Part shown: positions 8,560 through 63,869 of the stretch, piece after piece | How the letters are laid out: each line of letters begins with the position of its first letter | Numbering within the stretch: position 1 is the first letter of the stretch | IMG/VR virus record: IMGVR_UViG_3300028833_002727 | Origin: a virus | Lineage: Duplodnaviria > Heunggongvirae > Uroviricota > Caudoviricetes | Length of the DNA: 64,000 nt | Strand: one strand, 5' to 3' | Translations under genes and position numbers: made by a program | Notes under the pieces: generated by a model | What the model was told of the DNA's origin: nothing | Databases searched by the model: none | What the model saw: the letters and a program-made list of their open reading frames with translations, nothing else

Positions 8560-9606
8560 ATGTCTAAAGTAATTAACGAAAATATATTAAGAAGTATCAT
8601 TCGTAATGCGTTGAATGAAGCAGTTGATGAGTTGAACTTATATCACGGCACAAATGCTGATTTTGATAAGTTCGATTTTGCTTACCTATCTTCTGGCTGG
8701 GGCCAACAAGCATATGGTTATGGCTTTTATTTAACAACCAGTTATGATGCTGCAAAGGATTATGCATATGATGCTAATCATGGACAAGTGATGGAAGTAG
8801 AAGTGCCTGATGGGAAATATCTAACTGATGTTAGTATAAGCAAGGCTGAAGCAAACCGCATAGCGCGTATTTTCTTTAAATACATGACTGAAGAGAATGA
8901 AGATACTCGTGATAGTTATTCTACTGAAGAAGAGAAACGTTGTTTTTGGGATTACGAAGTGGATTATGTACGCCGTTGTAGCACTGGCACCTATGTATAT
9001 GGTACAATTGCTTCACTAATGGGCAGCGACAAAGATACTTCAGAATTTTTACATGACAAATGTGGCTATGTTGGATTAAAGATAAGGGACAGATATAACG
9101 CCGGAAAAAAGACGCCAATTACATATGTTATATTCAACCAAAATGATATTAAGATATTGAGGAAAACCCACGTTAATGAAAAAGTTGACAAATCAAAAGT
9201 TGATGAATTCCATAAAATATTTACATTTGGAAAATACAATGGACAAGAAAAGACTAAAGTTATACGAGAAGACCCTGAATATTGTGTGTGGTTATATAAA
9301 AAAATGAAATATTCACCATTTACTGATAAACAGCTTGGATTACTGGATGTATCATATTATAGAAAATATAAAATATTCCCAATTAAATCTAGAACAACAC
9401 CTAATTATGCACAAATAAAAGGTGTTTTAGTAAAGAATATGACAGCAGAACAATTATCATATGTATATGAGAATGGAACAGATGAATTTAAATGGCTAGT
9501 AAAACAAGAGCACACGAATCGTGGTTGGCATTATCACCCATACAAAAGGTATCCTGTTTTTCAGACGGATGATTTATACGAGAATATAGATAGCAGACTA
9601 CATTGA
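8560..9606 (+). CDS. ADP-ribosyltransferase-like (ART-PolyVal-like) protein with N-terminal tag and FGKY (DUF3820/ExoX-C-like) domain
   Basis: LYHGT...YGYGFYLT...AKDYA...YVIFN; FTFGKYNG; N-term INENILRSIIRNALNE. Confidence 0.7.
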   Translation: MSKVINENILRSIIRNALNEAVDELNLYHGTNADFDKFDFAYLSSGWGQQAYGYGFYLTTSYDAAKDYAYDANHGQVMEVEVPDGKYLTDVSISKAEANRIARIFFKYMTEENEDTRDSYSTEEEKRCFWDYEVDYVRRCSTGTYVYGTIASLMGSDKDTSEFLHDKCGYVGLKIRDRYNAGKKTPITYVIFNQNDIKILRKTHVNEKVDKSKVDEFHKIFTFGKYNGQEKTKVIREDPEYCVWLYKKMKYSPFTDKQLGLLDVSYYRKYKIFPIKSRTTPNYAQIKGVLVKNMTAEQLSYVYENGTDEFKWLVKQEHTNRGWHYHPYKRYPVFQTDDLYENIDSRLH

Positions 9607-9623
9607 TGTTAGGCAGTGGAAAA

Positions 9624-9657
9624 TAAAAAAGAGAACTTGGATGTTCTCTTTTTTTTT
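9624..9657. terminator. Bidirectional intrinsic terminator
   Basis: aaaaaagagaac-ttggat-gttctctttttt. Confidence 0.75.
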
Positions 9658-9916
9658 ATGTGTTTGAATCTATCACAACTTGTGATGGGATAGGTACATA
9701 GATACGTTTATAGAAATCGAGCATGGTTTCATCCGGGGATGCTTTCTCCATATACAAATCTGAATAACCATCAGTTGCAATACAGAAATATCTATCCCAA
9801 TTCCAAATACGTTTAATTTTACTCATAGGAATTAACCTATCACGTACCTGGTTCTTTTCACCATTGTCATAGCGATAGAATGAATTTTCAAAGTATAAAA
9901 AACAATCACTTGTCAT
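9656..9916 (-). CDS. Hypothetical protein
   Basis: ORF in operon. Confidence 0.55.
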   Translation of the reverse strand: MTSDCFLYFENSFYRYDNGEKNQVRDRLIPMSKIKRIWNWDRYFCIATDGYSDLYMEKASPDETMLDFYKRIYVPIPSQVVIDSNT

Positions 9917-10304
9917 TTTTCTTGAAGTATTTAAATGTTACGTTAATAAACAATATTGCAAGCGTACCAATAAACGCGGACATATATAAACCCGTACCAA
10001 CAAGACATCCAATTGCTGCGGAAGCCCATATTGTCGCTGCTGTCGTTAATCCATGAACCTTATCTTCGTGTTTAAATATGATTCCAGCACCAATAAAGCC
10101 GATTCCAGACACTATCTGTGCTATGACGCGGGAATTATCACCTCCAAATATTTCGGGCGACATGAGGCAAAAGAGAGTGGAACCAAGACAAATCAGTGAG
10201 ATTGTCCTGGAACCAACGGCTTTACCGCTATTTTCCCTTTCGATACCAATCATGTATCCGAAAAGAATTGATAATCCTATTTTAAACAGTACGACTAAAT
10301 CCAT
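9906..10304 (-). CDS. MgtC/SapB family membrane protein
   Basis: IGIERE...G.RT, RVIAQIVSGIGFIGAG, GLTTAATIW. Confidence 0.9.
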   Translation of the reverse strand: MDLVVLFKIGLSILFGYMIGIERENSGKAVGSRTISLICLGSTLFCLMSPEIFGGDNSRVIAQIVSGIGFIGAGIIFKHEDKVHGLTTAATIWASAAIGCLVGTGLYMSAFIGTLAILFINVTFKYFKKNDK

Positions 10305-15304: not shown

Positions 15305-15475
15305 ACCCATGAGTTGAAACGTTAACTCATCAGCAAGTTCTACTGCTGTTCTGGCTATTTGAGCGCCGCTATCATATTTGTAGTAGTCAGACACTCTCAG
15401 GTTAGCACATATTTTTGCAGCAGTTTCGTTGCGAAAAGCAAACCAGTCAAACGGCTTCTTATTCATATTTATCAA
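15245..15475 (-). CDS. Hypothetical phage protein
   Basis: DW..FR.E.A...IA..AVELADEL motif. Confidence 0.6.
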   Translation of the reverse strand: MINMNKKPFDWFAFRNETAAKICANLRVSDYYKYDSGAQIARTAVELADELTFQLMGSNHILQVIEEYGQKKKSRG

Positions 15476-16346: not shown

Positions 16347-16361
16347 ATTGTTTTATCTTTG

Positions 16362-19931: not shown

Positions 19932-20216
19932 TCATTTCTGGGCGGTTATCTTTTTTGCTTTTTTCTCTGCTATCATTTTTTTAGCAAGTTCTTTGTTCTG
20001 TTCTTTTTTCTTTGCAACTTCTTCAGGGTGCTCATCATTCCATTTGTCTTGTTCTTCAATGAATGAAACATATCCTATTTTCCAATTGAAATAGTGTGGG
20101 CACATTAAAAACCAGTGATTATCTTTTCCTTCTGCGATACATTTACCTTTCATTTTACATTTTCCATTACACATTTCCTCTTGGAATTGTGGTATATCTT
20201 TTTCGTCGTATTTCAT
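19932..20216 (-). CDS. Hypothetical protein
   Basis: ATGA overlap with upstream gene; Cys motif. Confidence 0.6.
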   Translation of the reverse strand: MKYDEKDIPQFQEEMCNGKCKMKGKCIAEGKDNHWFLMCPHYFNWKIGYVSFIEEQDKWNDEHPEEVAKKKEQNKELAKKMIAEKKAKKITAQK

Positions 20217-22327
20217 AGTAAATCTTCTTCTTTTAAACCTAAATTATTTAAAAACCACTGTTTAATCCACCACATGTAGTCATATTCCTGGAAATATTTA
20301 AGTAAAAGATATTCTTTAAGTTCCATATCATTACCAGTTAAAATCTCTTTAATTCTGTCATAGTCAAAATATTTTATTTTTTCTATTTTGAAGTTAAATT
20401 CAGATATTGGAATATTTTCTTCAGTAATAACAGAATCTGAGTTAACAAATCTAAATCTACCAGTTTCGGTAAACTCACTCACAGGCACTTCGATAGAAAT
20501 TTTACATTCGTTTCCCCAAGCGTCTGGGTGAACGGTAAAGAATAACATATTGCCATGTCCTTCAGAATGATGCTGGTGTATGTCTAATTCTCCGGTAGCA
20601 AGAATATCCCCAAGGCTCATCATTCTTGTGTTATGATAGAGTTTAATGAAACCATTTTGTTGATTTTTCTCTATCTCCTCTAACTCCCACTCTTGGTTGT
20701 AGTGTTCTGTTAGATACCCGCTATTTGATATTTGTGTTAATGTTCTTGCACCACCTTCGATGAATATACTAGACATATCTCCACGTTGGTGTGTTACATC
20801 TAAAGCCTTGTTAATCAATACTAAACATTGTTCTGGGCTTGTATAATTGTCATCGTATTCGGTTAATACTTCGTATAGTGGACGTAAGCCAAAATCACTC
20901 CAAGCGTCACTACCATCAGGCATTTGCATCCAATCATATAAACCAACCATGTCTAATAACCTGAATATGTCCATTTTAACAAGTATTTTGCCATCTTTAT
21001 CAAGTTCGGCTTTATCACCATTTAACCCAAATGATACTTTGCATTCTTGTTCACCGCTATTATGGTAATTGTATATATCAATAATACCTTGCAAATCTTT
21101 GTCGCGGGTTTTAATCATGTATTCGTTATCGTAGTAGTCCAATTCTGGTTGAGATAGGAACATCGCTGTTTGTCCTTTATTTGGACCCATTTGATGAACT
21201 GCTTCTTCAGATAGATTATTCTTCTGCATGAACTCGTCTATGTATTCTTTTTCATTTGGGCTTAATACATATCTACCGTTCAATAAATCATTGATTAGGT
21301 ATTGTGGTGTAACATGTAATGTACATTCATAATCCCAATCCATGACTTCCATGTTTAGTTTATTTTTGATATATTCATTGATGTAACTATTGTCCAACGC
21401 GTCGTAACTCATCCATTGTGAGTGTCCTGCTAATTCAGTATTACAATCAAGTTTAATAGTGTTACGCATGATAATACCAATCCACTGATATACATATTTC
21501 TCTGGGAAACCGTCTAGATTACCTTGTTTGGTAAATACTTGTAACGCGCGTTGATATATTGATGGGTTAATTAGAGGTGCCCAGGTTTGTGTTTCTCTTC
21601 CCTGGTTCATATCTTCAACGAAATCGTTTAGAATAGACTCACAACTAATCTCTTCAGAATAATCTTCAAGTGTTGCTTCATTTAGAAGTCCGTTTTCATT
21701 AAGTTTCTCTTTTTTAATCTCAGCATATTCAAAGAAAGGCTTTCTTTGTTGATAACCATCATAGAGCCATTTTTGGAATACCGTATGAGGAACTTCAGTG
21801 ATTTTCCAGAAGCCATTCCAACCTTCGTTGTAATTAGCCATGTATGCCTCTTTTGCCTCTTGCTCATTTCTGAAACCTAACATGATTTTAGTTTCATCGA
21901 ACTTACCGTCAATCTTCTGGTCGATAGCGAAGATAGAATATGTATCGAAATTATCTCCAAGGAATACATCAACAGCATCACCATCATAACCAAGTGTATG
22001 AGTGAAATAGCCGTAATCATTCTTCATTCTAACTTGCCACTTGTTACCTTTTCTGTCTTTACCACTACGGATAGTGCCACGTGGGTTTTCTATTGCAATG
22101 TCGTAACCAAGGATACGCACTCTACCCATTTTGTAGTTGCCCGCACTCTTTTGTCCTTCTGTTGGATTTTTATCGGTTTCCTCACGTGCTTGTTGTATCT
22201 TTTGTTGAAGTTCTGAAACTTGATTTTCTGTGAAGAAAATACGTTTTTGCTTATTTTCGTTTGATACAAGTTGCTCTTTTATTGCTTCTATTTGTTTTTC
22301 TGTTAAGAATATTTGTTTTTTTGCCAT
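20213..22327 (-). CDS. Multi-domain protein: tag + InPase (polyvalent-protein inorganic pyrophosphatase-like) + unknown + C-terminal ART-like domain
   Basis: PTEGQKSAGNYKMG..IENPRG..R.G.D..G..W...M..DYGYF....G.DGD.VDVF; C-term KLYHNT...ILATG; N-term IFLTEKQ and IFFTENQ. Confidence 0.75.
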   Translation of the reverse strand: MAKKQIFLTEKQIEAIKEQLVSNENKQKRIFFTENQVSELQQKIQQAREETDKNPTEGQKSAGNYKMGRVRILGYDIAIENPRGTIRSGKDRKGNKWQVRMKNDYGYFTHTLGYDGDAVDVFLGDNFDTYSIFAIDQKIDGKFDETKIMLGFRNEQEAKEAYMANYNEGWNGFWKITEVPHTVFQKWLYDGYQQRKPFFEYAEIKKEKLNENGLLNEATLEDYSEEISCESILNDFVEDMNQGRETQTWAPLINPSIYQRALQVFTKQGNLDGFPEKYVYQWIGIIMRNTIKLDCNTELAGHSQWMSYDALDNSYINEYIKNKLNMEVMDWDYECTLHVTPQYLINDLLNGRYVLSPNEKEYIDEFMQKNNLSEEAVHQMGPNKGQTAMFLSQPELDYYDNEYMIKTRDKDLQGIIDIYNYHNSGEQECKVSFGLNGDKAELDKDGKILVKMDIFRLLDMVGLYDWMQMPDGSDAWSDFGLRPLYEVLTEYDDNYTSPEQCLVLINKALDVTHQRGDMSSIFIEGGARTLTQISNSGYLTEHYNQEWELEEIEKNQQNGFIKLYHNTRMMSLGDILATGELDIHQHHSEGHGNMLFFTVHPDAWGNECKISIEVPVSEFTETGRFRFVNSDSVITEENIPISEFNFKIEKIKYFDYDRIKEILTGNDMELKEYLLLKYFQEYDYMWWIKQWFLNNLGLKEEDLL

Positions 22328-22335
22328 AATTAAGG

Positions 22336-22355: not shown

Positions 22356-22383
22356 TAGATAATTATTTGAAAGTGTCAACAAT

Positions 22384-23520
22384 ATGAAAGTTATTTTAAC
22401 TGAAAAACAATATAAAGAATATTTGCGTTTCCTACAGGATGAGCACAACCATAATCTCATCATGGAGGAATTCAAGGCTGAACTATCTCAAAAAGATATG
22501 CCAGCAGAATTCCAACAAATGAACGATTATATGTATGGTGATATACCACAGGGTAGATTGGATGCAATTCAAGATCGTTATACTAAAAACGGTTTTACAT
22601 ATAACAATAGTGCTAAACATCCTGAATTAGGACAACACAACGCAGAAGTTAAACCTAATGTTAGCGGTAGTGTATTCCCATTTGGTAATATCAAATTATC
22701 ACATGAAGTACTAATCGTTAACATGACTAGTGCATTACATTGCCCATCTGCAAAATTCTGTCCTATCGGAAAGAATGCGTGCTACGCTTTTAATGATGAG
22801 AGACGTAGAGAGTCATACTGGCAACGTAATGCAAGAAATGAAATCATGTTTGATATGGCAAGGGAAAATCCTGCTAAATGGAAATATATATTCTGGTTTA
22901 TTAGAAATTACATTGACAAAGCGCGTAACGCTGGCGTGATTGTTAGATATGTACGTCTAAACGAGGCTGGCGACTTTAAAACGGCAGATGACGTTCGCCG
23001 TTTTGATGAATTTGCTGCTGAATTGAAGAGAGATTACGGTATTGAGACACACGCATACACAGCAAATAAAGACTTGATTGATGCGATTTCACAAGTAAAA
23101 AACATCAATATAAATGCTTCAATTCCAGATATTCAGGGTGAAAAGGTTTTACGTCACTTCTATGGCGTAGAAGAGGAAATCCTTGCTCAATTACCAGATA
23201 CTCCGCTTAGGGATATTGCAACGCCTGAGTTACAGGAAGGCGGCAAATGGGGATTATATTACAAATGCCCATGTGATATTGCTGCTGGTGCAAGATGCTT
23301 TAATTGTCAAGTATGCTGGTTAGCAAAACCAGGTATCGCACCTAACGGTGAACAAGTACCACAATTTAATGTATTATGTAAAATACACGGTGCAGGTAAA
23401 AAACACTACAATCAAGCAAACGCTGATAAAAAAAGAGGTATGTCACCAGCACAACAAAAACTAAATATTAAGAAAATGGTTAAACAAGCGCGTCGCGCAG
23501 AAAATGAAGTAAATCAATAG
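22384..23520 (+). CDS. Phage Gp88-like Fe-S/Cys-cluster protein with N-terminal tag
   Basis: GNIKL, CPSAKFC...CYA, VRLNEAGDF, AYT, CPC...CFNCQVCW; N-term KVILTEKQ. Confidence 0.6.
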   Translation: MKVILTEKQYKEYLRFLQDEHNHNLIMEEFKAELSQKDMPAEFQQMNDYMYGDIPQGRLDAIQDRYTKNGFTYNNSAKHPELGQHNAEVKPNVSGSVFPFGNIKLSHEVLIVNMTSALHCPSAKFCPIGKNACYAFNDERRRESYWQRNARNEIMFDMARENPAKWKYIFWFIRNYIDKARNAGVIVRYVRLNEAGDFKTADDVRRFDEFAAELKRDYGIETHAYTANKDLIDAISQVKNININASIPDIQGEKVLRHFYGVEEEILAQLPDTPLRDIATPELQEGGKWGLYYKCPCDIAAGARCFNCQVCWLAKPGIAPNGEQVPQFNVLCKIHGAGKKHYNQANADKKRGMSPAQQKLNIKKMVKQARRAENEVNQ

Positions 23521-23531: not shown

Positions 23532-24053
23532 ATGAAAATAAAAAAAGATGTTTTAACGAGAATGATACGAGAAAGTATCACTAAGTGTTTGAATGAAACA
23601 ACGTTCAGTGATTTGGATGATATGGATAATTATAGCTGGCAATATTCAAGGGGTGAACGATTTGATATTTATGTTGATGGACATTTAGAATATCACGATA
23701 TTCCAGAAGAATCTGTTGATAGAATATGTGATATGCTTGAACGCGCTCCATATGAACAAAATATTGAAGTAAAAAGGATTGGTGAGTTATCTGAAGAACG
23801 TGATATTGATGCTGACACGTATTATGGCGGTGGTTTGCCAGAACCAGCACAACACGCTATGACTTATACACCAGAAAAAGAGGTTGCTGAAATATGCGAA
23901 CAAATGCGTCCATACGTAGACAAACTAGCGGACGTATTCAATAGTTATAGTCCAACAGTTCAAGGTGTTGATGATAAAGTATTTACATTACTTAACGGGT
24001 TCGATGAACTACCAAAGTTAGCAAAATTCTTTTCAACTACTGAAATAGACTAA
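23532..24053 (+). CDS. Tagged hypothetical protein
   Basis: N-term LTRMIRESITKCLNE. Confidence 0.7.
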   Translation: MKIKKDVLTRMIRESITKCLNETTFSDLDDMDNYSWQYSRGERFDIYVDGHLEYHDIPEESVDRICDMLERAPYEQNIEVKRIGELSEERDIDADTYYGGGLPEPAQHAMTYTPEKEVAEICEQMRPYVDKLADVFNSYSPTVQGVDDKVFTLLNGFDELPKLAKFFSTTEID

Positions 24054-43401: not shown

Positions 43402-43737
43402 ATGAGTAGAAAAGTACATTTAACAGAATCTCAAGTAGAAGAGATTGTAAATAAATTGAATGAGGATAACATTGAAGAGGGTAATGAACTCAATGTAAAT
43501 TATCAAAAACCGCCAACTGGCGTTGCAAACGTTCAAGATATGACAAATCAAATGACTGCTGCTAAAAAAGCCGCTCCTGGCGCTAAAGTAAATATGGTTG
43601 TTTCAGGCGAGGATTTGAATGTGATGGAAAGTTGTTACACTAAAAAACAAATTAAAGAGGCAAAATTGCGCTATTTGACTGAACATTCAACTTCATACAG
43701 TAAAAAAGATTTCAAGAACAGATTTATTAAGAAGTAA
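43402..43737 (+). CDS. Small tagged head-associated protein
   Basis: KVHLTESQVEEIVNKLNE; TATTTAT at 43376. Confidence 0.7.
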   Translation: MSRKVHLTESQVEEIVNKLNEDNIEEGNELNVNYQKPPTGVANVQDMTNQMTAAKKAAPGAKVNMVVSGEDLNVMESCYTKKQIKEAKLRYLTEHSTSYSKKDFKNRFIKK

Positions 43738-44912
43738 TGCGAAACATTATCATAAATAAAGAACAAGAACGCATACTTCTAGAAGCAAACCAACAGGATT
43801 ACGTATTATCTAAGGTTTCAAATAAAATCAAAAATGATATTGCAACAGATAATACGCCGCTTTCTTGTTTACCAATACCCCATAATGTGAATAAAAAGGT
43901 TATTGCCACTATTCTCACTAACGCTTATTTTAATGCACGTGATAATTTCAGCGATGACATTGAATCATTCCCTATAGATAAAGTTATTAACAAGTTAGAC
44001 AAGTTGGTTGCTATTTGTCAAAAGAAAGAAGAGAAGATACATAACGAACTGGAAAAGTTATGTGTCGATATTGCTACGTCTTATTTTAACTCAGATGAGT
44101 TAGCTGATTTAACTGTTGAATGTCGATTAGTCATGGACTTGTCACAAGATGATTTTCATATCGAGCCAACTAATGGTGTTGATGATGAGATTTCTAATCT
44201 TGATGAATATGATAAAAACGATATTGCAATTACTAATAGAAAAATCGCTAATACTATTGTTATGGGAGGCGCGCTATCCTTGTATGATAAATTACAAGAA
44301 ACGTTTATTTCTGAACTATTCAAATTAGACGAAGACTTACCACATTTGTATAGTAAGATATTAAAAATAAATGAATACCTTACATATGTTAGTGATGAAA
44401 CGATTACAGATAGAGATAACAAACAAAGTGGTTGTGTTAAAATAACGCTTGGTGGTGAAGAAGGCGATGAGATTGTTGCTGTTGGTACAATATTCCCATT
44501 CTTACTAATTGAGACTTTCCGTGGTTATTTAGAATTGATGTCTGATAATATGCTACCAAATAACGATTTTGAATTAGATAACATTACCGATAAGGCGGAT
44601 ATTCTAATGGATGAACCATGGTATATGATGTTAGGTAGAACAATATGGGATAAGATTGTTAGAAATGAAGATGATGATTTGACAATCATTAGTGAATTAT
44701 TTAAAATGGATGATAAATCATTCAATAAACTATTAACAAATATAATTGTTGGTACACATGACGCTGAGTCAATGATAGATAAGTTACATCGAATGGCAAG
44801 ATATAATTATGATTATGCTGATTTCGAAAAGGATTTAGCAAGAAGAAGAGAAGAAAATAATTTAATGATTGATGGTGGTGGTTTTATAGATAACGAAGAA
44901 TATAATAAATAA
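43737..44912 (+). CDS. Tagged hypothetical protein
   Basis: IIINKEQERILLE; TAATG-coupled. Confidence 0.75.
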   Translation: MRNIIINKEQERILLEANQQDYVLSKVSNKIKNDIATDNTPLSCLPIPHNVNKKVIATILTNAYFNARDNFSDDIESFPIDKVINKLDKLVAICQKKEEKIHNELEKLCVDIATSYFNSDELADLTVECRLVMDLSQDDFHIEPTNGVDDEISNLDEYDKNDIAITNRKIANTIVMGGALSLYDKLQETFISELFKLDEDLPHLYSKILKINEYLTYVSDETITDRDNKQSGCVKITLGGEEGDEIVAVGTIFPFLLIETFRGYLELMSDNMLPNNDFELDNITDKADILMDEPWYMMLGRTIWDKIVRNEDDDLTIISELFKMDDKSFNKLLTNIIVGTHDAESMIDKLHRMARYNYDYADFEKDLARRREENNLMIDGGGFIDNEEYNK

Positions 44913-51530: not shown

Positions 51531-51564
51531 ACAAGTATTTATTATAAAGAATATTACGTGAGAT

Positions 51565-52287
51565 ATGGATAGTAAAAAACAAATAGTAGAAATAAAAAAA
51601 GGGAACGTCGGTTCTGGCTTATTATTAGAAAATGACGGATATATGTCATTGGATATGCCAGAAAACAAAATGCTGAAAGAATCAGTTGAGGCATTCCAGG
51701 GTGGTATGGCACATGAGTTGCCACGTCCTTTTGTTGTTTCTGCCGTATTCCAAAAATACGGTATTCAAAACGCTAACGGACGTATATATCCAGAAAAGAT
51801 ATTGAAAAGAGAAGTTGAGAAATATCAACAGGCAATTAAAGAAAGACGCGCTTTCGGTTGTTTAAATCACCCGGATTCAAGTGATTTGGATTTGGAAAGA
51901 ATATGTCTTTTAATTACTGAACTTCATTGGGTAGGGCATACATTGGTTGGTAAAATGGAAATTCCTATTACTGAAGGTTTCCGCAGAGATGGTATTTGTT
52001 CTAATCTTGCGGATACTTTAGCACAATGGTTAATTAGTGGCTTGCGTGTTGGTGTATCAAGTAGAGCATTAGGCGGCGTACAGCAAATCGGCGGTACATT
52101 GGTTGTTGATGATACCCTTGAACTAATTTGTTGGGATGCTGTTGGACAACCATCAACTCCAGGTGCATACATTGATACAAACGACGATGCTTTAACACCA
52201 TTCATTGAATCAAAAGAAGCACCTGATGGTAAACAGGTTATTAAAGAGGACAAATTTAGTAAATTCGATGGGTGGTTAAACGATTAA
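51565..52287 (+). CDS. Prohead core protease (T4 gp21-like)
   Basis: QNANGRIYP, LNHP, GVSSRALG, WDAVGQPSTPGA; TATTTAT at 51536. Confidence 0.9.
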   Translation: MDSKKQIVEIKKGNVGSGLLLENDGYMSLDMPENKMLKESVEAFQGGMAHELPRPFVVSAVFQKYGIQNANGRIYPEKILKREVEKYQQAIKERRAFGCLNHPDSSDLDLERICLLITELHWVGHTLVGKMEIPITEGFRRDGICSNLADTLAQWLISGLRVGVSSRALGGVQQIGGTLVVDDTLELICWDAVGQPSTPGAYIDTNDDALTPFIESKEAPDGKQVIKEDKFSKFDGWLND

Positions 52288-52343: not shown

Positions 52344-52880
52344 ATGTATATGGATAATAAAAAATTAAAAAATATAATAAAAGAAAGTATCCTAGCAGAA
52401 CTTGGTGAGGATGGTAGCAAGTTTAAAGCAACTATTGAATGGGTACAAGATAGGTATAATAAAGCTAATCAAGAACTATTCAATGGGCGACTTGGCGCTT
52501 GTAATTTCAAGATTGCTGATTTAGGTGTTAGAACAAATGGAAGATTTACACTAGATACACCATCAAACTATCTTTATTACGATCCAAAAGCAAACAATCA
52601 TTTATACGTTGTCCCATATATTGGTGCTAGTAGAATTTACATCAATAAAGAGAATTTTGTTAAATATTGTAATCCAACCATTTTGCTGAATTCAAATCGT
52701 TCTGCTACTGAAGAATCAAGATATACAACATTGGTTCACGAAATGTGTCATTATTATACTTACATGTTCGGGTTTGTTCCAAAGCAAGCACATGGTAGAG
52801 AATTTAGAGATATTGCATCAATCATAGCATATAGAAGTAATGGCGCAATAACAGTGCAACGGCTTGCAAGCGCAGAATAA
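52344..52880 (+). CDS. SprT-like zinc metalloprotease with N-terminal tag
   Basis: N.ELF.G.L, TLVHEMCH, HGREF; LKNIIKESILAE. Confidence 0.8.
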   Translation: MYMDNKKLKNIIKESILAELGEDGSKFKATIEWVQDRYNKANQELFNGRLGACNFKIADLGVRTNGRFTLDTPSNYLYYDPKANNHLYVVPYIGASRIYINKENFVKYCNPTILLNSNRSATEESRYTTLVHEMCHYYTYMFGFVPKQAHGREFRDIASIIAYRSNGAITVQRLASAE

Positions 52881-53254: not shown

Positions 53255-55036
53255 ATGAACAAAGGTTTTGAAATAAATGGTACTATGGATTTAGGACACA
53301 TGAGTCCATTAGAACAACAAGAAAATGTTATGGAAAAGAAGATAAATGAACAAACGTTAAGACAAATAGTTCGTGAAAGTTTAAAAGAACTATCTAACCA
53401 AACAATTGGTAGTTATATGCGTGCAACAAAAAACCAAAGAAGGGATAGACAATATGATGCAGGCAAATGGCACGCGATAAAAACTGTTAACGACAAATAT
53501 AGTTTTTGTGTCACATTGGATCTTGGCGAGGAAGTATTATTCACCTTGGGTATGGACAATGAGGAATTCTTCATTCTTGTTGATGTAGATGAACATATGG
53601 AAAATAAAGAACCATATACTTTGAAGTTAATGCCTAACAATCCAAGACGTATGTTAGATGGTACTCCAATAACTGAAACAACGGTTGGGTATGTTATTGA
53701 TAACCTACGCGCAGGTGAAAGGATGAAACTTAAAGGCTTATGCCAATCCGCTATAGAATTGAATCAAGCATTAAGAGGTAAACAAGCACAAATTGCTGAA
53801 TCTGTTAAAGAGAAAGCGGTAAGTAAATCACAACAACGTTTTTTCGGCATGGTTGATGCATATAAAAAAGGTGAGTTGGATAATCCTTCAAAATCTGTTA
53901 AAGATGCAGCTGATGGTATGTCAATGAAACAGGTAAAAGATTTTGCGAAAACAAAACACAAAGGTTTACCAAACCATGTAGATGAATCTGTCCTTCGTAG
54001 TATAATTAGAGAAACATTAGAACAAACATGGGCTGACAGAGAACCAAAAGATAAAATGGATAACATACGTCTTCAACGTTACCAGGGGTTAGTTGAAATC
54101 GTTGAATACTATCTAAATCAATGCGAAGCTGGAAATGGTGTTGAATTGTCTGATAAACAACGTGAGCAACTTGAAGATGCTTGTAATAAACTATGTGTGT
54201 TTGGTGAAATTGGTGAAAAGTGGGCAAATCTTGGCAGAAGTATTTTGAGTGGAGATGAAGATGTTGCAGAAGAGAAACCATTTACTGATGAAAATGTTTA
54301 CACAATGGATGACTGGAGGCGTGATGGTTCACTCAAAGTACAGATAGGGCAGTTAATAGCACCTGAAGTATATTGGCAATTAAGAGATAGTGTACCGCCA
54401 ATGTCAGACGGAGGTTGTTTCCAACCTGGTGAAGCATACGACCATGACTGGAGAACTGGAAAAGCACTTTATCAAACATTCACGCGCGAGGGCGATAATT
54501 ATTATAGATACAAAGGATTACAGCCAGCAAGTAGGTGGGGATTAGAAGAAAGTGAATTAAAAAAAACAATAAGAGAAACAGTACAAATGCATTTAGTAAA
54601 CGTACTTGGTAAATATACACAAGGAAAAACATCAAGCAAAGAGGCAAACAAGGCTATCATGGATTTAGCAAATAGTTCAAATAAAAAAAAAGTGAATGAA
54701 GATGTTGATGCTCGTACTGCCGCATATTTCGACAAAATTAGAAATGGAGAATATGAGACTTTAGAGTTTGAAGGAAAAATATTTAGTGTCCCTCCACAGT
54801 TAAAACAAATAGCACAGAAAACTGCCGACAAATTTGGGGTTAGGGTATCAACATATGTAGGAGAAGACGAAAGAAAACTTTATTATGGCTTATTAGTTGA
54901 TGTTCCAGAAAATTGTGTTTTTCCAACATTATCCAATAACATTAGGTTATTTTTATTAGATTATGATATACATTATATAGGTTGGTACAAGAGAGGCATC
55001 TTTTTTTACCAGCAAATAATGAAAAAACCATACTAA
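53255..55036 (+). CDS. Multi-tag internal head polyprotein containing a DUF3008-like module
   Basis: Three E..LR.I[IV]RE.L-type tags; KAVSKSQQRFFGMV...VKDFAKTKHKGLP. Confidence 0.7.
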   Translation: MNKGFEINGTMDLGHMSPLEQQENVMEKKINEQTLRQIVRESLKELSNQTIGSYMRATKNQRRDRQYDAGKWHAIKTVNDKYSFCVTLDLGEEVLFTLGMDNEEFFILVDVDEHMENKEPYTLKLMPNNPRRMLDGTPITETTVGYVIDNLRAGERMKLKGLCQSAIELNQALRGKQAQIAESVKEKAVSKSQQRFFGMVDAYKKGELDNPSKSVKDAADGMSMKQVKDFAKTKHKGLPNHVDESVLRSIIRETLEQTWADREPKDKMDNIRLQRYQGLVEIVEYYLNQCEAGNGVELSDKQREQLEDACNKLCVFGEIGEKWANLGRSILSGDEDVAEEKPFTDENVYTMDDWRRDGSLKVQIGQLIAPEVYWQLRDSVPPMSDGGCFQPGEAYDHDWRTGKALYQTFTREGDNYYRYKGLQPASRWGLEESELKKTIRETVQMHLVNVLGKYTQGKTSSKEANKAIMDLANSSNKKKVNEDVDARTAAYFDKIRNGEYETLEFEGKIFSVPPQLKQIAQKTADKFGVRVSTYVGEDERKLYYGLLVDVPENCVFPTLSNNIRLFLLDYDIHYIGWYKRGIFFYQQIMKKPY

Positions 55037-55220: not shown

Positions 55221-56753
55221 ATGAGTAAGAAAAACAATACGGCACAAAAATCTGCTCTTGAAATTGAACAACTTTCAAAGGCTTTGAGAGAAGGTACTGA
55301 AAAAACTTTACGTAATCTTCTCAAAGAAGCAATTGAAGACATCGTTGACAACGATGAGGAATCACAAGATGCAGAACCTATCGAAGATGATAGTTATGAG
55401 GTACAAGATGTCGAAACTGACGAAACTCCAAGTGATGCACCTGAAGAAGGTGAACCAGAGACATCTGGCGAAGGCGAGGAAGCATCTTCAGATGACGAAG
55501 GTGGAGCCGACGAATGGGGTGATTACGACGAGTTCAAGGTAGGAGATAATGAATATGATTTCACTGGCGTGGATGGAGATTTAGCTCTCAAGATTTATCA
55601 AGCACTATCAGATGACGACCAAATCAGTGTTAAGAAAGATGATGAAGGTAACATCAAGGTTAGTGATGGTGAAACTGGCGCAGGAGTAGTGATCGAACTA
55701 ACACCTGAAGATGGTGGTGCAGAGAATGGCGAAGAAGGTATTTCTGATAAACTTCCTGGTGACGAAGGTGCAGAAGGTGATGCTGATGGCGACATTGACA
55801 TTCAACTTGAACCAGACGCAGAAGGTGGTGCAGATGATGAAATCGAAATCGACTTAGGTGACGGTTTAGATGATGAACCATCTGATGATGAACTTAACGA
55901 AGATTTAGGTTACACTGACAGTTATCAGAAAGATGTTATGCCAGGTTTAAAAATGAACGAACCAGCAGATAAAAAAGCAACTTACAGTATGGATGATGGT
56001 GCTCCAGAAGGTAACAAAAAACCTTGGGCTGGTAAGCACACTGAAAAAGACTACAAAGAGACACATACTGATTTAGCAGAAGGTTGTGAAGGTGGTGCTT
56101 GCGAAAAAGAACTTGAGGAAGGTGCTATGAGCACATCAAGTCAATCAGTAGCAAAAGAAACACACACTCCAACATCTGAACCACGTGCTAACAACGCACG
56201 TCAAGTTGCAAAATTAGTTCACAATGGTGGTAAACAGTTAGACGAGGCAAAAGCATTAAAAATCCTTGAAGCAGCAAAGGCCATTCAAGCAGAAAATAAA
56301 CAAATTAAAGCCTTAGCAGGTAAGTTAAGAAAAAGTCTTATGGAGGCTGCAACTCTTAACATGAACTATGGTAAAATTGTTACTTTGTTAGTTAACGAAA
56401 GTACTACAAAGGCTGAGAAACAATCAATCATTGAACGTTTCAATAAAGTTACCACAGTTAAAGAAGGTGCAATTCTATTTGAATCAATCAAACGTGAATT
56501 GAACGAAAGTCACAAGAGTGATGCTGCAAACGTTCTAAACGAACAAATTTCAGCAGAGTCTTCAAGACAAATCAACGAAACTACATTCTATCAAACAAGT
56601 GCTAACAACAAGAGTATTTCTTTAATGGAAAGAATGGATAACCTAGGTAGAAACTACTCAAAAGGTGGCTACAAACCAATTAACGAAAATACTAGTAAAG
56701 GGCTTGACTTAATGAATAGAATTAGTGGACTCCAAACAAAAAGACAAGTATAA
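55221..56753 (+). CDS. Prohead core scaffold protein (T4 gp22-like position)
   Basis: Acidic plus coiled coil, many LNE/INE sites, directly upstream of MCP; TATTTAT at 55124 and 55162. Confidence 0.7.
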   Translation: MSKKNNTAQKSALEIEQLSKALREGTEKTLRNLLKEAIEDIVDNDEESQDAEPIEDDSYEVQDVETDETPSDAPEEGEPETSGEGEEASSDDEGGADEWGDYDEFKVGDNEYDFTGVDGDLALKIYQALSDDDQISVKKDDEGNIKVSDGETGAGVVIELTPEDGGAENGEEGISDKLPGDEGAEGDADGDIDIQLEPDAEGGADDEIEIDLGDGLDDEPSDDELNEDLGYTDSYQKDVMPGLKMNEPADKKATYSMDDGAPEGNKKPWAGKHTEKDYKETHTDLAEGCEGGACEKELEEGAMSTSSQSVAKETHTPTSEPRANNARQVAKLVHNGGKQLDEAKALKILEAAKAIQAENKQIKALAGKLRKSLMEAATLNMNYGKIVTLLVNESTTKAEKQSIIERFNKVTTVKEGAILFESIKRELNESHKSDAANVLNEQISAESSRQINETTFYQTSANNKSISLMERMDNLGRNYSKGGYKPINENTSKGLDLMNRISGLQTKRQV

Positions 56754-56791: not shown

Positions 56792-58672
56792 ATGCAATCA
56801 CAATTCTTATTAGAAAATCATTTAGGTGAAGCAGCGCTTCAACAACAAAAACAAGCTCGCGAACTTATTAGAGAACGTTGGAGTAACCTTGGTTTTACTA
56901 GAGGTTTAGAGGGTTATATGGAAGATAACATGGCAACTCTTTTCGAAAACGAGGCTCAAATGATGCTTTCAGAATCAACTGACGCACAAAACAGTGGTTC
57001 ATTCGAAACAGTTGTATTCCCATTAGTACGTCGTGTATTCTCACGTCTATTGGCTAACGACATCGTATCTGTTCAAGCAATGAACATGCCTATTGGTAAA
57101 TTGTTCTTCATCCTTCCTGTTACTAGCGAAAGACAATGGGATTTCGACGACATCGCACAAGCACTTTCTGCTTTGATGAGCGGACAAACTGTAGCAGGTA
57201 AACACGTTGGTTTGATGGGTTACCAAAGAACTAACCGTAACGAATGGGACGAAAACGGTGAAGGTACAAAACAAAACCGTTATTACTTACCAGACGAAGT
57301 AGTTAAACCTACTAGCAATGTTGAACCAAAAGTAACAGAGTACTTCAAGAAATCTCTTTACGATATGTTCTATAACGATGGTTTGTTCGACCAATCAAAA
57401 GGCCAAATCCATCTAAGAGCAGGTGAATTAGAGGAAATCGACAGAATCGAATTCGACGGTTCAGAAGTTGCACACGTAAGTGGCGCTCCACGTGCATTAG
57501 CATTCGATGGTACTGTTCGTAGTATCAAAGTTAAATTATCAGGTTTCAGCCCAGTAAACGCTGGTAGACTTATCGGTCCTGACGGTAACGAAATGGACAC
57601 TGAGGCTTTCTTGGCATCATTGAAAATTGTTACTAAAACTGAAATCGCAGCAGCTACAGGCGAAACAACAACAACTTCATTCAAGGAGTTAGAACCAGTT
57701 CACTTCCGCGTTGTAACACAACAATATGGCCGTGCAATGGTTCAATACGATAGCATCTGCAATGCTAAAGGCGAAATCTTACTTGAAATCGACTTAACAA
57801 AACCAACTGTACAAATGGGTAAAACTATTGACGGTTACATTGGTGTTGACGCAGACGCAATCGGTGATGTAAACGAAACATTCTTAGCAGTTTGGGCAGA
57901 ATACGACAGCCTTGAACTTGAAACTGAAATCGGTGAAGTTTCATTCAAACTTACAGACGTAACAGTTTCTGTTGAGGAAAGAAAACTTCGTGCAACCTGG
58001 TCACCAGAATTAGCACAAGACGTTGCTGCATTCCACAACATCGACGCTGAAGCAGAGTTAACTGCTATCCTTTCAGAGCAAATCGCTGCTGAAATCGACC
58101 GTGAAATCCTCCGTGACTTGCGTAAAGCATCTCCATGGACAATCAAATGGGATTACAATGGCTGGCGCCGTCAAGCAGGTTTCTCAACAAACTACACTCA
58201 GAAAGACTGGAACCAAACTCTTATGACTAAGATTAACCAACTTTCTGCTCAAATCCATAAAGCAACTTTACGTGGTGGTGCAAACTTCATCGTAGTTTCT
58301 ACTGAAATTTCAGCCGTTCTTAACGACTTAGAGTACTTCCATGTAACAGACGCTAACGCTGAAGCAGTTCAATATTCAATGGGTATTGAAAAAGTTGGTG
58401 CTCTTCAAGGACGTTATGAGGTATTCGTAGATCCATACAGTCCAGCACAATCATTGATTATGGGTCACAAGGGTGATAGTTTGTTAGACACTGGTTACAT
58501 CTACGCTCCATATGTACCAATGCAATTAACTCCAACTATCTATAATCCATTCAACTTCGCACCAGTAAAGGGTATCATCACTCGTTACGCTAAGAAGATG
58601 GTTAACAACAGATATTATGGTTCATTGGTAGTTAATGGACTTCAAACTTGGGACATCAACGAACTCCGTTAA
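56792..58672 (+). CDS. Major capsid protein (T4 gp23-like)
   Basis: PLVRRVF, VSVQAM..P.G, RKLRATWSPELAQD..AFH.IDAEAELT.ILS..I..EIDREI, YAPYVP, P.KG..TRY. Confidence 0.95.
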   Translation: MQSQFLLENHLGEAALQQQKQARELIRERWSNLGFTRGLEGYMEDNMATLFENEAQMMLSESTDAQNSGSFETVVFPLVRRVFSRLLANDIVSVQAMNMPIGKLFFILPVTSERQWDFDDIAQALSALMSGQTVAGKHVGLMGYQRTNRNEWDENGEGTKQNRYYLPDEVVKPTSNVEPKVTEYFKKSLYDMFYNDGLFDQSKGQIHLRAGELEEIDRIEFDGSEVAHVSGAPRALAFDGTVRSIKVKLSGFSPVNAGRLIGPDGNEMDTEAFLASLKIVTKTEIAAATGETTTTSFKELEPVHFRVVTQQYGRAMVQYDSICNAKGEILLEIDLTKPTVQMGKTIDGYIGVDADAIGDVNETFLAVWAEYDSLELETEIGEVSFKLTDVTVSVEERKLRATWSPELAQDVAAFHNIDAEAELTAILSEQIAAEIDREILRDLRKASPWTIKWDYNGWRRQAGFSTNYTQKDWNQTLMTKINQLSAQIHKATLRGGANFIVVSTEISAVLNDLEYFHVTDANAEAVQYSMGIEKVGALQGRYEVFVDPYSPAQSLIMGHKGDSLLDTGYIYAPYVPMQLTPTIYNPFNFAPVKGIITRYAKKMVNNRYYGSLVVNGLQTWDINELR

Positions 58673-61123: not shown

Positions 61124-61314
61124 AATTTTTTCATTTTTGTAAATTTGTTATTATTCCCTTCATATTTCACTATGAAGTAATAAATACCCCTTTATTATAA
61201 AATATCACAATATAAATGAAAAAAACCATATTTTTCTCTATAAAAGTGTGTATTTTTACATGTTTTTAGGCGTTTCAAGGTATTTATTGTTAAGAATTAG
61301 TATTTATAAACACT

Positions 61315-62343
61315 ATGTTAACAGAGAAATTAAAGAAACATATAACAGATTTAATATATAACTTATTATCTGAAGGTATTCAGGATGCGAGTGATGAAGA
61401 ATTACTTGCAAAAATAACTTCAGGTGAAAAAGTTTTCCACCGCCCAAAAGACGCTTATGGTTCTGACCCGTTGGCTACCATAAAAAGTTTGTTCAGACGT
61501 GGTTTCTCGCGTGAATATACAGGTAGTAACGGTGGGAATATGTATGGTACAGGCGTTTATAACGTTTACAATTTGAGAAGTAGTAATGAAAAAGCGCGTG
61601 GATATGGTAGATACATATTACAATCATACGTAGTAGATGGTTATAAGAACTTCTTAATATTCAATAGCGACATCGCTAAAAAATATTACGGAGAAAACTG
61701 GTGGATTGGTAATCAAATTAAATTGTTAATGCCACCACAAATGGCGAGTAGAGTGTTACGAATGGTTGGGCATAATTTGTATATGAACGATTTCAAATCA
61801 CTCGATAAAAAAACTGCATCTATTGCTTATCAGATTTTCTCAATTGTTGGTGAATCTGGTATGAGGCAAACAAAAATACGTGGCATTATATATGACGGTG
61901 GACATGATGGTTCATGTGCGTTCGTTAGGGATTTTAGTGATGTTTGCCCTTATGCTTATAGTGACGATAACGGTAAAACCTGGAAAAAAGGTATAACAAG
62001 AGAATTGATGCAACATGTGATGGGTAACATTGATACGGAATTTGAATTGAAAAACAGAATTGACTCTGCTGGCAATCGTAAATTCGATGATGTTGCGAAG
62101 AAATCAATTAACGGTTTTGCTATTGTTTACAAACATAACAAAGTTAATTATTATTCTGTTGAGACACGTAGTTTAATATCAAACGTTTGGTTTGATGAGG
62201 GTATGAACTTTGATGAAGATGGATACGCTGAAGTGGTTTACCAAGGCTCTCCATTGTGTGTTCACAATGATGGTGGCGGTGAGTATTCAATCACTGACAT
62301 GGACGGCGCATACTTATGCAAAATAAGTGATTTAGAAATGTAA
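61315..62343 (+). CDS. ART-like domain plus WG-repeat protein with N-terminal tag
   Basis: VFHR...GF...GNMYGTGVY...YGRYIL; C-term GFAIV...WFD...FDEDGYAEV; LKKHITDLIYNLLSE. Confidence 0.65.
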   Translation: MLTEKLKKHITDLIYNLLSEGIQDASDEELLAKITSGEKVFHRPKDAYGSDPLATIKSLFRRGFSREYTGSNGGNMYGTGVYNVYNLRSSNEKARGYGRYILQSYVVDGYKNFLIFNSDIAKKYYGENWWIGNQIKLLMPPQMASRVLRMVGHNLYMNDFKSLDKKTASIAYQIFSIVGESGMRQTKIRGIIYDGGHDGSCAFVRDFSDVCPYAYSDDNGKTWKKGITRELMQHVMGNIDTEFELKNRIDSAGNRKFDDVAKKSINGFAIVYKHNKVNYYSVETRSLISNVWFDEGMNFDEDGYAEVVYQGSPLCVHNDGGGEYSITDMDGAYLCKISDLEM

Positions 62344-62354
62344 GAAATAAATAT

Positions 62355-63869
62355 ATGCAAGAGGCTTTTAGATTTAATAACGCACAAGCAAGAAACGACT
62401 ACTTCCGTAAACAAGCTGGAGGTGATGCTGCATCTGAAAATAAACCAGATGAGTTAGGACGTTTAAAAATATCATACAGTGAAGGTACTGTACCAGTTGT
62501 TGCTGGCGGTAAAGTTACACAATTACCTGTACACAATATCTTTCTTTATAATTTACAACCAAATGATGTACAAGAAATTATACGTGAATTAACAGCACAA
62601 AAGAAAGAAACCAGAACACAAAATGCTTTTGTTCCTAGAAGAAACGTAAGGGATTGTGTACAAATCCGTGTTGGTGAAAACGATATGGAACAATGGTTGC
62701 AAACTGGTATGCATGTAGTTCAAAACATTCTACGCCAATCAGGTGTTTATGATGAACAAGAAATCAATGACATGCCGGGTTACATTTCAAACGTTGCTGT
62801 TAGTAAGGCACAAATGAGACAAGAATATCAAAATGCTGAAAATAAAGCAATTGATGTATGGTTGGCATATTTAAAAGATATTAACAACCCTGAAGTTGTT
62901 TCTAAATTACAGGCTTATCAACGTGTATATCGTTATTTAGATGTTCAATATGGACATGTAAAAAGTGCAAAGAATGTTGCTGCTATTTTAGCAACAGATT
63001 CTAATGCAACATTTATTTTAACAGCCGCAGAATGGAGAGATTTCAACAGATACGTTAAACCGAACGCTAAACGTTTCTATGTATTAGTCCCATTGATTGA
63101 TAACGTTGATAAAAGTAAATTGGATGCGGTAATTGATAAATGTGGATGGGGCGGCACAGCATATTGTGATTTACCATTCCAAGTTCAACAGTTAGTTGAT
63201 ATGAAATGTCAGGAATTAGATATTGCTCCCCCATTTGCACATTACATTGAATTTGATATTTCAGACACTGAAGTTATTCCTGGAAAAGAGGATATATTCA
63301 ATACACAAATTGGTTTAGCAAATAACTTGACTGGAGAATTAAACGACAAAGCCAAAGAAGATTACGCTAAAAAACACGGTAATGAGGATATGCCTGAGGA
63401 TCAGGAAATGATGCAAAGAACGAAACAAGCAGCAGAATTTATTGTAAACTTCTGTCAAAAACAACATATTCCTTTCAAATATAATGAAACTGATAGCCCA
63501 TCTACAATTTTAGTTAATGGCTTAGTGGCTTATTATAAATCAGTTGCTGAAGCAGATGCTAACATTGATAAAGATACAAACAAAGAGATATTTGCAAAGA
63601 ACGCAACATTGTTTACATTGATTATAACTAATTTAGCGTTAGATAAAATTTCAAACTTCGGACATCCGGTTGAATATACAAAACAAGAGGCTGCTGAATT
63701 CCTAAAAAGTGTTACATATGTATTGAATAGATTAGAGCCAGCACTTGCTCTTCAACCACAGGCTGTTGAGGTTAATGAATCCGCAATGCCAAAATCAATA
63801 CGAAGTAAAGATGAAATTTTACAGCAGTTCCGCAAATTCTGTAAACAAATTGGTATAAGAATTATATAA
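62355..63869 (+). CDS. Protein with ArdC-N-like ssDNA-binding domain
   Basis: SAKN...I....NATF......W....R.VK..AK...VLVP...FDISDT. Confidence 0.6.
   Translation: MQEAFRFNNAQARNDYFRKQAGGDAASENKPDELGRLKISYSEGTVPVVAGGKVTQLPVHNIFLYNLQPNDVQEIIRELTAQKKETRTQNAFVPRRNVRDCVQIRVGENDMEQWLQTGMHVVQNILRQSGVYDEQEINDMPGYISNVAVSKAQMRQEYQNAENKAIDVWLAYLKDINNPEVVSKLQAYQRVYRYLDVQYGHVKSAKNVAAILATDSNATFILTAAEWRDFNRYVKPNAKRFYVLVPLIDNVDKSKLDAVIDKCGWGGTAYCDLPFQVQQLVDMKCQELDIAPPFAHYIEFDISDTEVIPGKEDIFNTQIGLANNLTGELNDKAKEDYAKKHGNEDMPEDQEMMQRTKQAAEFIVNFCQKQHIPFKYNETDSPSTILVNGLVAYYKSVAEADANIDKDTNKEIFAKNATLFTLIITNLALDKISNFGHPVEYTKQEAAEFLKSVTYVLNRLEPALALQPQAVEVNESAMPKSIRSKDEILQQFRKFCKQIGIRII

Follow-up and report, generated by a model that had tools for sequence, protein, structure and literature searches.

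A shared leader peptide on unrelated genes, polyvalent-type enzymes among them, in a fragment of a T4-like jumbo phage

The locus and its leader tag

In this study we analysed 64,000 nucleotides (nt) of the IMG/VR virus record IMGVR_UViG_3300028833_002727, hereafter the window, which corresponds to bases 8101-72100 of a linear viral contig of 118,756 bp rated as 34% complete by CheckV. The window holds a phage head gene module and a set of genes that begin with a common leader peptide, hereafter the tag. Several of these genes encode predicted enzymes of types known from polyvalent proteins, among them ADP-ribosyltransferases (ARTs) and an inorganic pyrophosphatase (InPase). The tag is real and common to about 15 otherwise unrelated genes of the contig. 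Here we describe these genes and discuss whether the tag directs their products into the phage head. Genes are named after the lower of their two coordinates (Table 1).

Judged by its sequence, the DNA is a fragment of a T4-like jumbo phage that has no cultured close relative. We assign it to such a phage because it carries a T4-type head module and because the relatives retrieved from IMG/VR with its capsid protein as query, at least 597, include complete genomes of 312-412 kb; terminal repeats were found in two complete relatives. We regard it as having no cultured close relative because the glycosyltransferase region gave no match in a megablast search against 50,697 phage records and its sole match in tblastn was a partial one to a glycosyltransferase of Lak phages. 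Three complete relatives, G001 (356 kb), G003 (349 kb) and G005 (312 kb), were taken for full comparison. The tag statistics refer to these three genomes and the contig under study, and the profile searches for domain families in relatives refer to five complete genomes.

The tag comprises about 23 amino acids (aa) with the consensus x-I-R-L-T-E-S-Q-L-H/R-R-I-I-K/R-E-S-V-x-x-V-L-N-E. As a simple regular expression was too loose (16 internal matches), open reading frames (ORFs) were scored with a position matrix (PSSM) derived from N-termini, and a score of at least 11 was taken as the threshold. The scores were bimodal, and 15 ORFs of the contig, 15 of G001, 13 of G005 and 22 of G003 reached the threshold, as did 4 of 777 internal control windows (about 0.5%). 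The consensus contains three [LIV]-x-E motifs, two of them inside the part on which the matrix was trained and the third being the terminal L-N-E. Beyond the trained window, [LI]-N-E stands at tag positions 20-22 in 30 of the 65 tagged ORFs, and conservation ends at position 23. The wider motif [LIVM]-x-E follows the trained window in 48 of the 65 compared with 20% of the control windows. Moreover, a capsid gene lies within 10 kb of tagged ORFs in 43 of 80 related loci. The proteins behind the tag differ widely. Many are small (70-200 aa) with no recognisable domain, and a comparison of the cargo sets, as had been suggested in a preliminary description of the window, revealed that for about 40 of the 65 no homologue exists in any of the three remaining genomes.

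Tags are found at other places than the N-terminus as well. Additional internal tags start at residue 170 of the 38669 protein, which looks like two tagged modules in a single frame, and at residue 427 of the 53255 protein, and one protein of G003 carries a tag near its C-terminus. These positions bear on an explanation unrelated to the capsid, in which the shared N-terminus would be an amphipathic helix for oligomerisation or membrane contact, or an element of the 5' mRNA or of translation initiation. The tag is indeed a charged amphipathic helix, AlphaFold gives the 61315 protein a separate N-terminal helix of low confidence, and some paralogous tags are highly identical in nucleotides (up to 87%, dropping to 23% in the following 69 nt). 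Nevertheless, we consider this explanation very unlikely, since the motif also occurs far from start codons, the conservation is at the amino-acid level with a mean nucleotide identity among tags of only 47%, and neither the three [LIV]-x-E motifs nor the abrupt end at L-N-E would be accounted for.

The genes of the head module are ordered as protease, tagged genes, gp23-type capsid gene, terminase and portal, with the gp20-type portal gene lying just outside the window. The acidic 55221 protein appears scaffold-like from its position relative to the gp21 and gp23 homologues. The 43737 gene has only a weak tag; in G001 and G005 the tag of its orthologue is clear. No Pfam or PHROG match was obtained for the cargo part of the 23532 protein. 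Regarding expression, no 7-mer is more enriched ahead of tagged genes than TATTTAT, which lies within 80 nt upstream of 34 of the 65 compared with 164 of 1322 other ORFs; in the form [GA]TATTTAT the box also stands ahead of the genes for the protease, portal, sheath and terminase. By this association the box may be a late promoter element. The 8560 gene, which is oriented opposite to its minus-strand neighbours, has its own box. The spacer between the divergent tagged genes 20213 and 22384 looks like a compact bidirectional promoter because it contains one box per strand within 56 nt.

Table 1. Genes and sequence elements of the window discussed in the text (nt positions of the window; tag scores from the PSSM)
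Position	Strand	Feature	Remarks
1..339	+	3' end of a tagged 286-aa gene	last of three upstream tagged genes (contig 7579-8439)
8533..8540	+	GTATTTAT box	candidate late promoter element, 19 nt upstream of the 8560 gene
8560..9606	+	tagged ART-PolyVal gene, 348 aa	Pfam PF18760; tag score 20.1; leader nt 8563-8631, ending A-L-N-E
20213..22327	-	mosaic cargo gene, 704 aa	two tandem tags (nt 22247-22315 and 22175-22243, scores 23.0 and 15.1), InPase, middle module, predicted ART-superfamily module
22335-22342	+	TATTTAT box	in the 56-nt spacer 22328-22383 of 20213/22384
22349-22356	-	TATTTAT box	in the same spacer
22384..23520	+	tagged gene, 378 aa	GP88 domain (PF17338); divergent from 20213
23532..24053	+	tagged gene, 173 aa	tag score 12.0
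36765..37358	-	tagged gene, 197 aa	possibly ART-like; tag score 23.5
38669..39448	+	259-aa gene with two tags	tags at aa 5 and 170 (nt 38681-38749, 39176-39244), scores 32.3 and 27.2
39587..40978	+	pol-beta nucleotidyltransferase gene, 463 aa	unknown N-terminal module, then NTase at aa ~250-340; no clear tag
43375-43382		ATATTTAT box	ahead of the 43402 gene
43402..43737	+	tagged small gene, 111 aa	tag score 23.1
43737..44912	+	391-aa gene	weak tag (score 9.9)
51535-51542		GTATTTAT box	ahead of the protease gene
51565..52287	+	T4 gp21-type prohead serine protease	Peptidase_S77, 72 bits vs cut-off 27
52344..52880	+	SprT-like zincin, 178 aa	degenerate tag (score 7.0); directly follows the protease gene
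53255..55036	+	head-module gene, 593 aa	tags at aa 27 and 427 (nt 53333-53401, 54533-54601); DUF3008
55221..56753	+	acidic 510-aa gene	shortly before the capsid gene; segment at aa 22 weakly resembling the tag (score 7.6)
56792..58672	+	major capsid protein, T4 gp23 family	Pfam Gp23, 240 bits
59204-61123	-	large terminase
61280-61287 and 61300-61307		GTATTTAT boxes	ahead of the 61315 gene
61315..62343	+	ART-PolyVal-like fold (aa 28-222, predicted) and beta-rich C-terminal domain	degenerate N-terminal tag
62355..63869	+	untagged head-module gene, 504 aa	aa 159-468 weakly ArdC-like

Enzyme modules and their fused relatives

The preliminary description had assigned polyvalent-type domains to seven ORFs (8560, 20213, 36765, 39587, 52344, 61315 and 62355), which are all present where it had placed them. 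Five of these assignments stood, the one for 36765 is no more than a lead and the one for 62355 found no support at the sequence level. The statement that the genes mostly share the tag was only partly borne out: the tag is clear in three of the seven (8560, 20213 and 36765), degenerate in 52344 and 61315 and missing from 39587 and 62355.

The 20213 protein is the only one of the seven with at least two recognisable effector domains in one polypeptide, the others having one each. Its InPase domain (aa 58-188) matches Pfam PF18823 with 160.4 bits (cut-off 26.8) over profile positions 2-134 of 135. The InPase of polyvalent proteins has been described as having four acidic metal ligands and no beta-hairpin insert (PMC5512222). 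The domain also matches PHROGs labelled as minor head protein, virion structural protein and DarB-like antirestriction protein. The parts of this protein have their counterparts in different genes: the InPase part resembles a 261-aa ORF of G001, and the middle module (aa ~214-534) resembles tagged ORFs of G003 (309 aa) and G005 (226 aa). The C-terminal module (aa ~535-704, 170 residues) has 32 relatives among 1.84 billion representatives and occurs either solo (167-212 aa) or at varying positions within proteins of 677-1182 aa. In two fused homologues a sub-threshold Pfam PARP match falls on this very module, another homologue matches DUF3990, and its language-model neighbours are all ART families; the Tpt1 match of the homologue P0090 sits elsewhere in that protein. 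The suggested ART-like C-terminus of 20213 is thus supported as a predicted module of the ART superfamily.

Three further genes were considered as ARTs. The domain of the 8560 protein (aa 25-135) reaches 39.4 bits against the PF18760 cut-off of 31.2. The active site of ART-PolyVal has been described as a His on strand 1, a Tyr on strand 2 and an Asp on strand 5 (PMC5512222). In an alignment of five sequences of the 8560 type, H29 (Y-H-G-T), Y56 (G-F-Y-L-T) and an acidic residue that is Glu rather than Asp (E79/E81) are conserved. Behind the ART domain (aa 202-250) lies a short motif like the C-terminus of ExoX (PF20600; NCBIfam ExoX, E 3.4e-6), which was the only addition from the NCBIfam scan; PF20600 is annotated likewise on P0009 and P0010, distant homologues of the 62355 gene. 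Upstream of the window (contig 5312-8439) there are three successive tag-bearing genes, the first being an ORF of 405 aa whose tag sits at residue 69, the middle one a second ART-PolyVal gene (31.9 bits, PF18760) and the last one extending into the window (Table 1).

The 61315 protein has no Pfam match, and its resemblance to ART-PolyVal is one of fold. According to a structural model with a pLDDT of 87, built on an alignment of 28 sequences, it is an ART fold closest to the PolyVal-type ARTs. The best match in BFVD was annotated as 'PolyVal ADP-Ribosyltransferase' (E 2.3e-5), followed by a capsid-protease-MuF fusion and by several proteins of 980-1490 aa that bear the name ART-PolyVal or 'large polyvalent protein'. 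When aa 28-222 were compared with 48,161 PDB chains, all matches were ART folds (Z 5.0-5.8, 113-141 residues aligned; Z 5-6.2 over all PDB comparisons of this part), including cholix toxin, PARP1/4/10, NatT, MbcT, ParT and a cyanophage pre-ejectosome protein. Its beta-rich C-terminal domain (aa 245-332) resembles single beta-propeller blades such as those of TolB, prolyl oligopeptidase and WD40 proteins (Z 5-6.6). The tag is present in 16 of the 62 members of the 61315 family.

For the 36765 protein the ART assignment is a lead only. Its nearest named language-model clusters are DarT/PARP (0.88), Arr (0.87) and also Tpt1, and the family has a conserved K-L-x-H-V-V motif and E120, with the tag in all five homologues. 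Compared by hhalign, the 36765 and 61315 families gave no significant match; the best alignment, at a probability of 0.2%, pairs the two His-bearing strands. Phmmer and profile searches of PDB sequences gave nothing useful for 61315, 62355 and 36765.

The predicted pol-beta nucleotidyltransferase (NTase) 39587 exceeds the cut-off narrowly, with 21.2 bits for the domain alone against 21 in Pfam PF01909 (NTP_transf_2), while the whole protein remains below it with 19.5 bits. Seven of eight homologues of this domain from related phages match NTP_transf_2 as well, and the pattern G-S...D-x-D...E (G64, S65, D76, D78, E121) is invariant in the family. The 52344 gene, with an orthologue in G003, encodes a SprT-like zincin with the motif HEMCH (41.2 bits against 25.6, Pfam PF10263). 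At E<=1 the zincin families matched were SprT-like, M91, M35 and M76 only, which leaves the protein outside the 12 polyvalent MPTase clades of PMC5512222. These clades are distinct from earlier-defined zincin clades, and SprT is absent from the main text of that paper. One to three SprT-like peptidases have been described in some jumbo phages (PMC7824862). About 1.5 kb past the window end and beside the portal gene (contig 73562-74014, minus strand) we noticed a 150-aa ORF with an N-terminus that is SprT-like by appearance; G001, G005 and G003 have untagged, Pfam-confirmed SprT-like ORFs with similar N-termini.

The 62355 protein had been described as ArdC-N-like. It has no Pfam match at E<=1, hence none to ArdC-N (PF08401), and no HExxH motif, and the PF08401 profile (ArdcN) found nothing in the complete relatives either. 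Its 10-member family aligned with R388 ArdC in hhalign with a probability of 0.5%, and a profile search against PDB sequences did not find ArdC. The structural comparison that had been proposed for each domain, which returned the ART fold for 61315, gave a weak resemblance here. Amino acids 159-468 of a low-confidence model (pLDDT 64) align with 6sna_A (R388 ArdC) at Z 6.8 and a root-mean-square deviation of 7.0 A over 221 of 265 residues. Among the 48,161 PDB chains ArdC ranked second and was the only one of the top 50 matches to span this region (the match at rank 50 covers aa 352-463); Foldseek gave a probability of 0.66 and an E value of 0.15. The 62355 protein may thus weakly resemble whole ArdC in fold.

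The state of these domains also bears on the possibility that the tagged proteins serve chiefly as structural components, forming the core or inner body of a very large capsid or a filler that condenses its DNA, and that their enzyme domains are decayed or incidental. The many tagged ORFs of 70-200 aa with no recognisable domain would fit such a role, and 53255 and 55221 are placed like T4 scaffold genes. We consider it quite unlikely, since the InPase matches over its full model, HEMCH and G-S...D-x-D...E are intact and the ART motif keeps its H and Y in five sequences. Besides, a rapid turnover of the cargo suits conflict genes better than structural ones.

Homologues of the modules are physically fused together in other phages, and therefore the effector repertoire belongs to the polyvalent-protein domain network, in which solo genes of this clade grade into fusions of three to four modules. 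In the relative G004 one frame of at least 855 aa combines a module of unknown type at its N-terminus with an internal tag, the orthologue of the NTase and ART-PolyVal. P0081 (1011 aa) contains InPase, ART-PolyVal and the ART-like module of the 20213 type one after another, InPase and this ART-like module occur together in P0082 and P0087, and P0090, P0092 and P0099 combine it with an NTase. In these fusions the tag often stands just ahead of a module: in P0081 at residue 526 before the InPase at 555, in P0084 at 408 before a module at 422, and in P0087 at 5 and 671 before modules at 23 and 699. Further junction tags were found in the G004 fusion, in P0082, in the 38669 and 53255 proteins of the window and in the InPase ORF of G001. 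Profiles for ART-PolyVal, InPase and SprT-like domains found ORFs of 142-1042 aa in the complete relatives, never giants of 1.5-3.5 kaa, and in the family profile searches no ORF of these genomes had more than a few of the domains searched for. The giant ORFs of the relatives (1.5-3.5 kaa) were considered as polyvalent proteins and rejected; they have N-termini that look like those of baseplate or tail proteins, and the four family searches, which stood in for a direct Pfam scan, landed in none of them.

Three statements of the preliminary description need to be qualified. The domains are of types known from polyvalent proteins as far as the families fused in G004, P0081 and others are concerned, the SprT-like zincin lying outside the MPTase clades and ArdC-N being unproven. 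Most of the genes are separate and have a single domain, except that three modules are fused in 20213, the NTase of 39587 is preceded by an additional module and G004 fuses the NTase with ART-PolyVal. The proposed modular alternative to fusion is matched by the tag ahead of solo modules, but solo and fused forms are continuous and the tag occurs inside fusions too. A more sceptical view would be that there is no system at all, only ordinary, unrelated accessory genes whose polyvalent link comes from Pfam names. The zincin and ArdC-N findings and the two untagged genes among the seven would fit it. This view is largely refuted by the fusions in P0081 and G004 as well as by the structural neighbours of 61315 among the large polyvalent proteins, and we regard it as highly improbable.

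Other genes of the window were noted besides. Directly upstream of the protease gene (44924-51530, plus strand), two multi-glycosyltransferase proteins of 1117 and 918 aa (GT2, GT92, GT7, TOD1/MUCI70) are encoded with a hexapeptide acyltransferase between them. On the minus strand, 15459-17973 holds a NUDIX gene (15459-16346) near a nicotinate phosphoribosyltransferase gene (16717-17973, 181 bits), which suggests a pair for NAD+ salvage in a phage with several predicted NAD+-using modules of the ART type. Two of the tagged genes are directly followed by a TnpB/IS605 OrfB-type gene (24147-25289, minus strand; OrfB_IS605 and a Cas12f1-like TNB domain). The phage also encodes a ClpB/ClpA-like double AAA+ protein of 860 aa (25497-28079, minus strand), a ClpX-like AAA+ protein of 364 aa (30119-31213, minus strand) and a UvrD-type helicase (31210-32994). 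Two adjacent ORFs of 115 and 230 aa with near-identical N-termini (33098-34166, plus strand) precede a BspA-type leucine-rich-repeat protein (34198-35820, plus strand; LRR_5, 301 bits), which may bind the host.

Proposed loading, cutting and delivery

We consider it fairly probable that the locus encodes a T4-type internal-protein system on an enlarged scale, whose tagged cargo would be targeted to the capsid, trimmed and delivered with the DNA. Loading and delivery appear probable because one leader heads unrelated genes, polyvalent-type enzymes among them, and because the anatomy is T4-like. The leader would act as a capsid-targeting sequence (CTS) and draw the protein into the scaffolding core of the prohead. 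The gp21-type protease 51565, by analogy the candidate for the tag-removing enzyme, would then cut after the Glu of [LIV]-x-E, so that the leader would be removed and modules would be parted at internal tags. The trimmed enzymes would remain in the head, enter the next host with the DNA and act there before phage gene expression. The delivered set would comprise the ARTs, the InPase, probably the zincin and possibly the untagged pol-beta NTase. As for the cargo as a whole, the best reading is that it consists of fast-changing effectors.

Several observations weigh against this proposal. The phage and all of its relatives are uncultured, and the system is known here from genes alone. The likeness of the tag to the T4 CTS is one of anatomy. 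The motif [LIV]-x-E is short and common and was found in 20% of random 14-residue windows. The NTase gene 39587 and the 62355 gene, that is two of the seven named genes, are untagged, and the InPase orthologue of G001 bears its tag behind the domain, not ahead of it. The ART-like modules are predicted enzymes, and the acidic residue of the 8560 protein is a Glu (V-M-E-V-E-V-P-D) instead of the Asp described in PMC5512222. Finally, TATTTAT also stands ahead of some non-structural genes, for example the DNA polymerase gene, and for this reason we can only infer that the box is late.

The neighbourhood of the protease gene allows for another role of the leader. It could be a pro-peptide that silences toxic enzymes or times their processing, and the enzymes would then act late in the producing cell without being packaged. 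In favour of this, the protease gene adjoins tagged genes, the tag ends with [LIV]-x-E, and the ART and NTase modules have toxin-like folds, with NatT, MbcT and ParT among the structural matches. We nevertheless consider it rather unlikely. The gp21 family acts inside proheads (PMC5694885), the tagged genes are grouped with head genes, which have the same promoter box, and the same domain families are fused to head proteins of the MuF or portal type elsewhere (PHROG, BFVD, PMC5512222).

Returning to the proposed capsid-loading system, the tags at the junctions of fused relatives suggest a wider role, which we put forward only tentatively. The tag might be a general module boundary meaning 'load here, cut here', each effector module having its own address-and-cleavage peptide, and polyvalent fusions might be polyproteins cut by the prohead protease. 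If this were so, solo genes and fusions would be interconvertible by the gain or loss of stop codons. Moreover, it would offer a concrete route for the loading and processing of polyvalent proteins, which PMC5512222 leaves to MPTase autoprocessing or MuF fusion, and the junction tags provide a testable rule for it.

If the tag does address the capsid, a catalogue of candidate injected effectors can be read from the sequence, with 13-22 per genome, most of them genome-unique, including ARTs, the pyrophosphatase and possibly the nucleotidyltransferase and the zincin. Two so far separate fields would be joined, namely the CTS of T4 and the polyvalent proteins, which have been defined by computation. 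With its length of about 23 aa, the tag would moreover lend itself to the loading of phage heads with foreign proteins, which has been done with the T4 CTS.

Comparison with known systems

The idea of a modular delivery of polyvalent-type domains is an application of published concepts, because solo versions of these domains among late genes have already been described (Iyer, Burroughs, Anand, de Souza, Aravind 2017, PMC5512222) and the CTS model of T4 has been published as well (PMC3012670, PMC5694885). What seems to be undescribed in searchable papers is the tag itself, the scale of 13-22 genes per genome and its placement at the module junctions of fused relatives. Our literature search, which covers few subscription journals, did not find a description of tags at polyvalent-protein junctions.

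The closest parallel is T4, whose IPI, IPII, IPIII and Alt share a short N-terminal leader on otherwise unrelated, fast-evolving proteins (PMC3012670, PMC5694885). All T4 internal head proteins enter the scaffolding core through the CTS, and gp21 cuts after Glu and so strips gp23, gp24, Alt and the internal proteins of their propeptides, often with several cuts in each (PMC5694885). Similarly, the head module analysed here contains a gp21-family protease, the leader ends with a hydrophobic residue, any residue and Glu, and one cargo class consists of ADP-ribosyltransferases, as T4 Alt is a packaged and injected ART (PMC5512222). Expression with the late genes, as found for the T4 internal proteins, is suggested here by the TATTTAT box. 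In contrast to T4, the leader has about 23 aa with three [LIV]-x-E motifs, each genome has 13-22 tagged genes instead of a handful, and the tag also lies between the modules of multi-domain proteins. Furthermore, the ARTs are of the H-Y-[ED] PolyVal/PARP type, whereas T4 Alt is of the R-S-E type.

Similar features were described for the ejection proteins of phiKZ, 201phi2-1 and SPN3US, which are also jumbo myoviruses with many head-internal proteins (PMC5694885, PMC10052503). Their N-terminal propeptides are removed after Glu, often at multiple sites, at (S/A)-x-E by a gp21-related protease (PMC5694885, PMC10052503). However, the phiKZ-type lineage differs, its protease belongs to family S80 and its propeptides are long and mostly specific to one paralogue. 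Its cargo includes a virion RNA polymerase, none of which was seen in our phage. The effectors fused to MuF or portal proteins and the Dar system of P1 are head-carried enzymes injected for anti-restriction or host modification (PMC5512222, PMC12810830), which is what we propose for the tagged cargo. Unlike in those systems, the cargo of our phage showed no attached homologue of MuF or Dar, and a small peptide would serve as the address.

With polyvalent proteins (PMC5512222) the genes share the ART-PolyVal and InPase families, and pol-beta NTases and zincins at the superfamily level only. The context of late or virion genes and the predicted early action after DNA entry are common to both. 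Relatives of the modules described here sit in proteins of 700-1200 aa with two to three polyvalent-type domains, whereas most modules of our phage are encoded one by one, in genes of 110-700 aa that each begin with a leader. For delivery, our phage would depend on a CTS-like tag and the prohead protease, polyvalent proteins on MuF or portal fusion or MPTase autoprocessing (PMC5512222).

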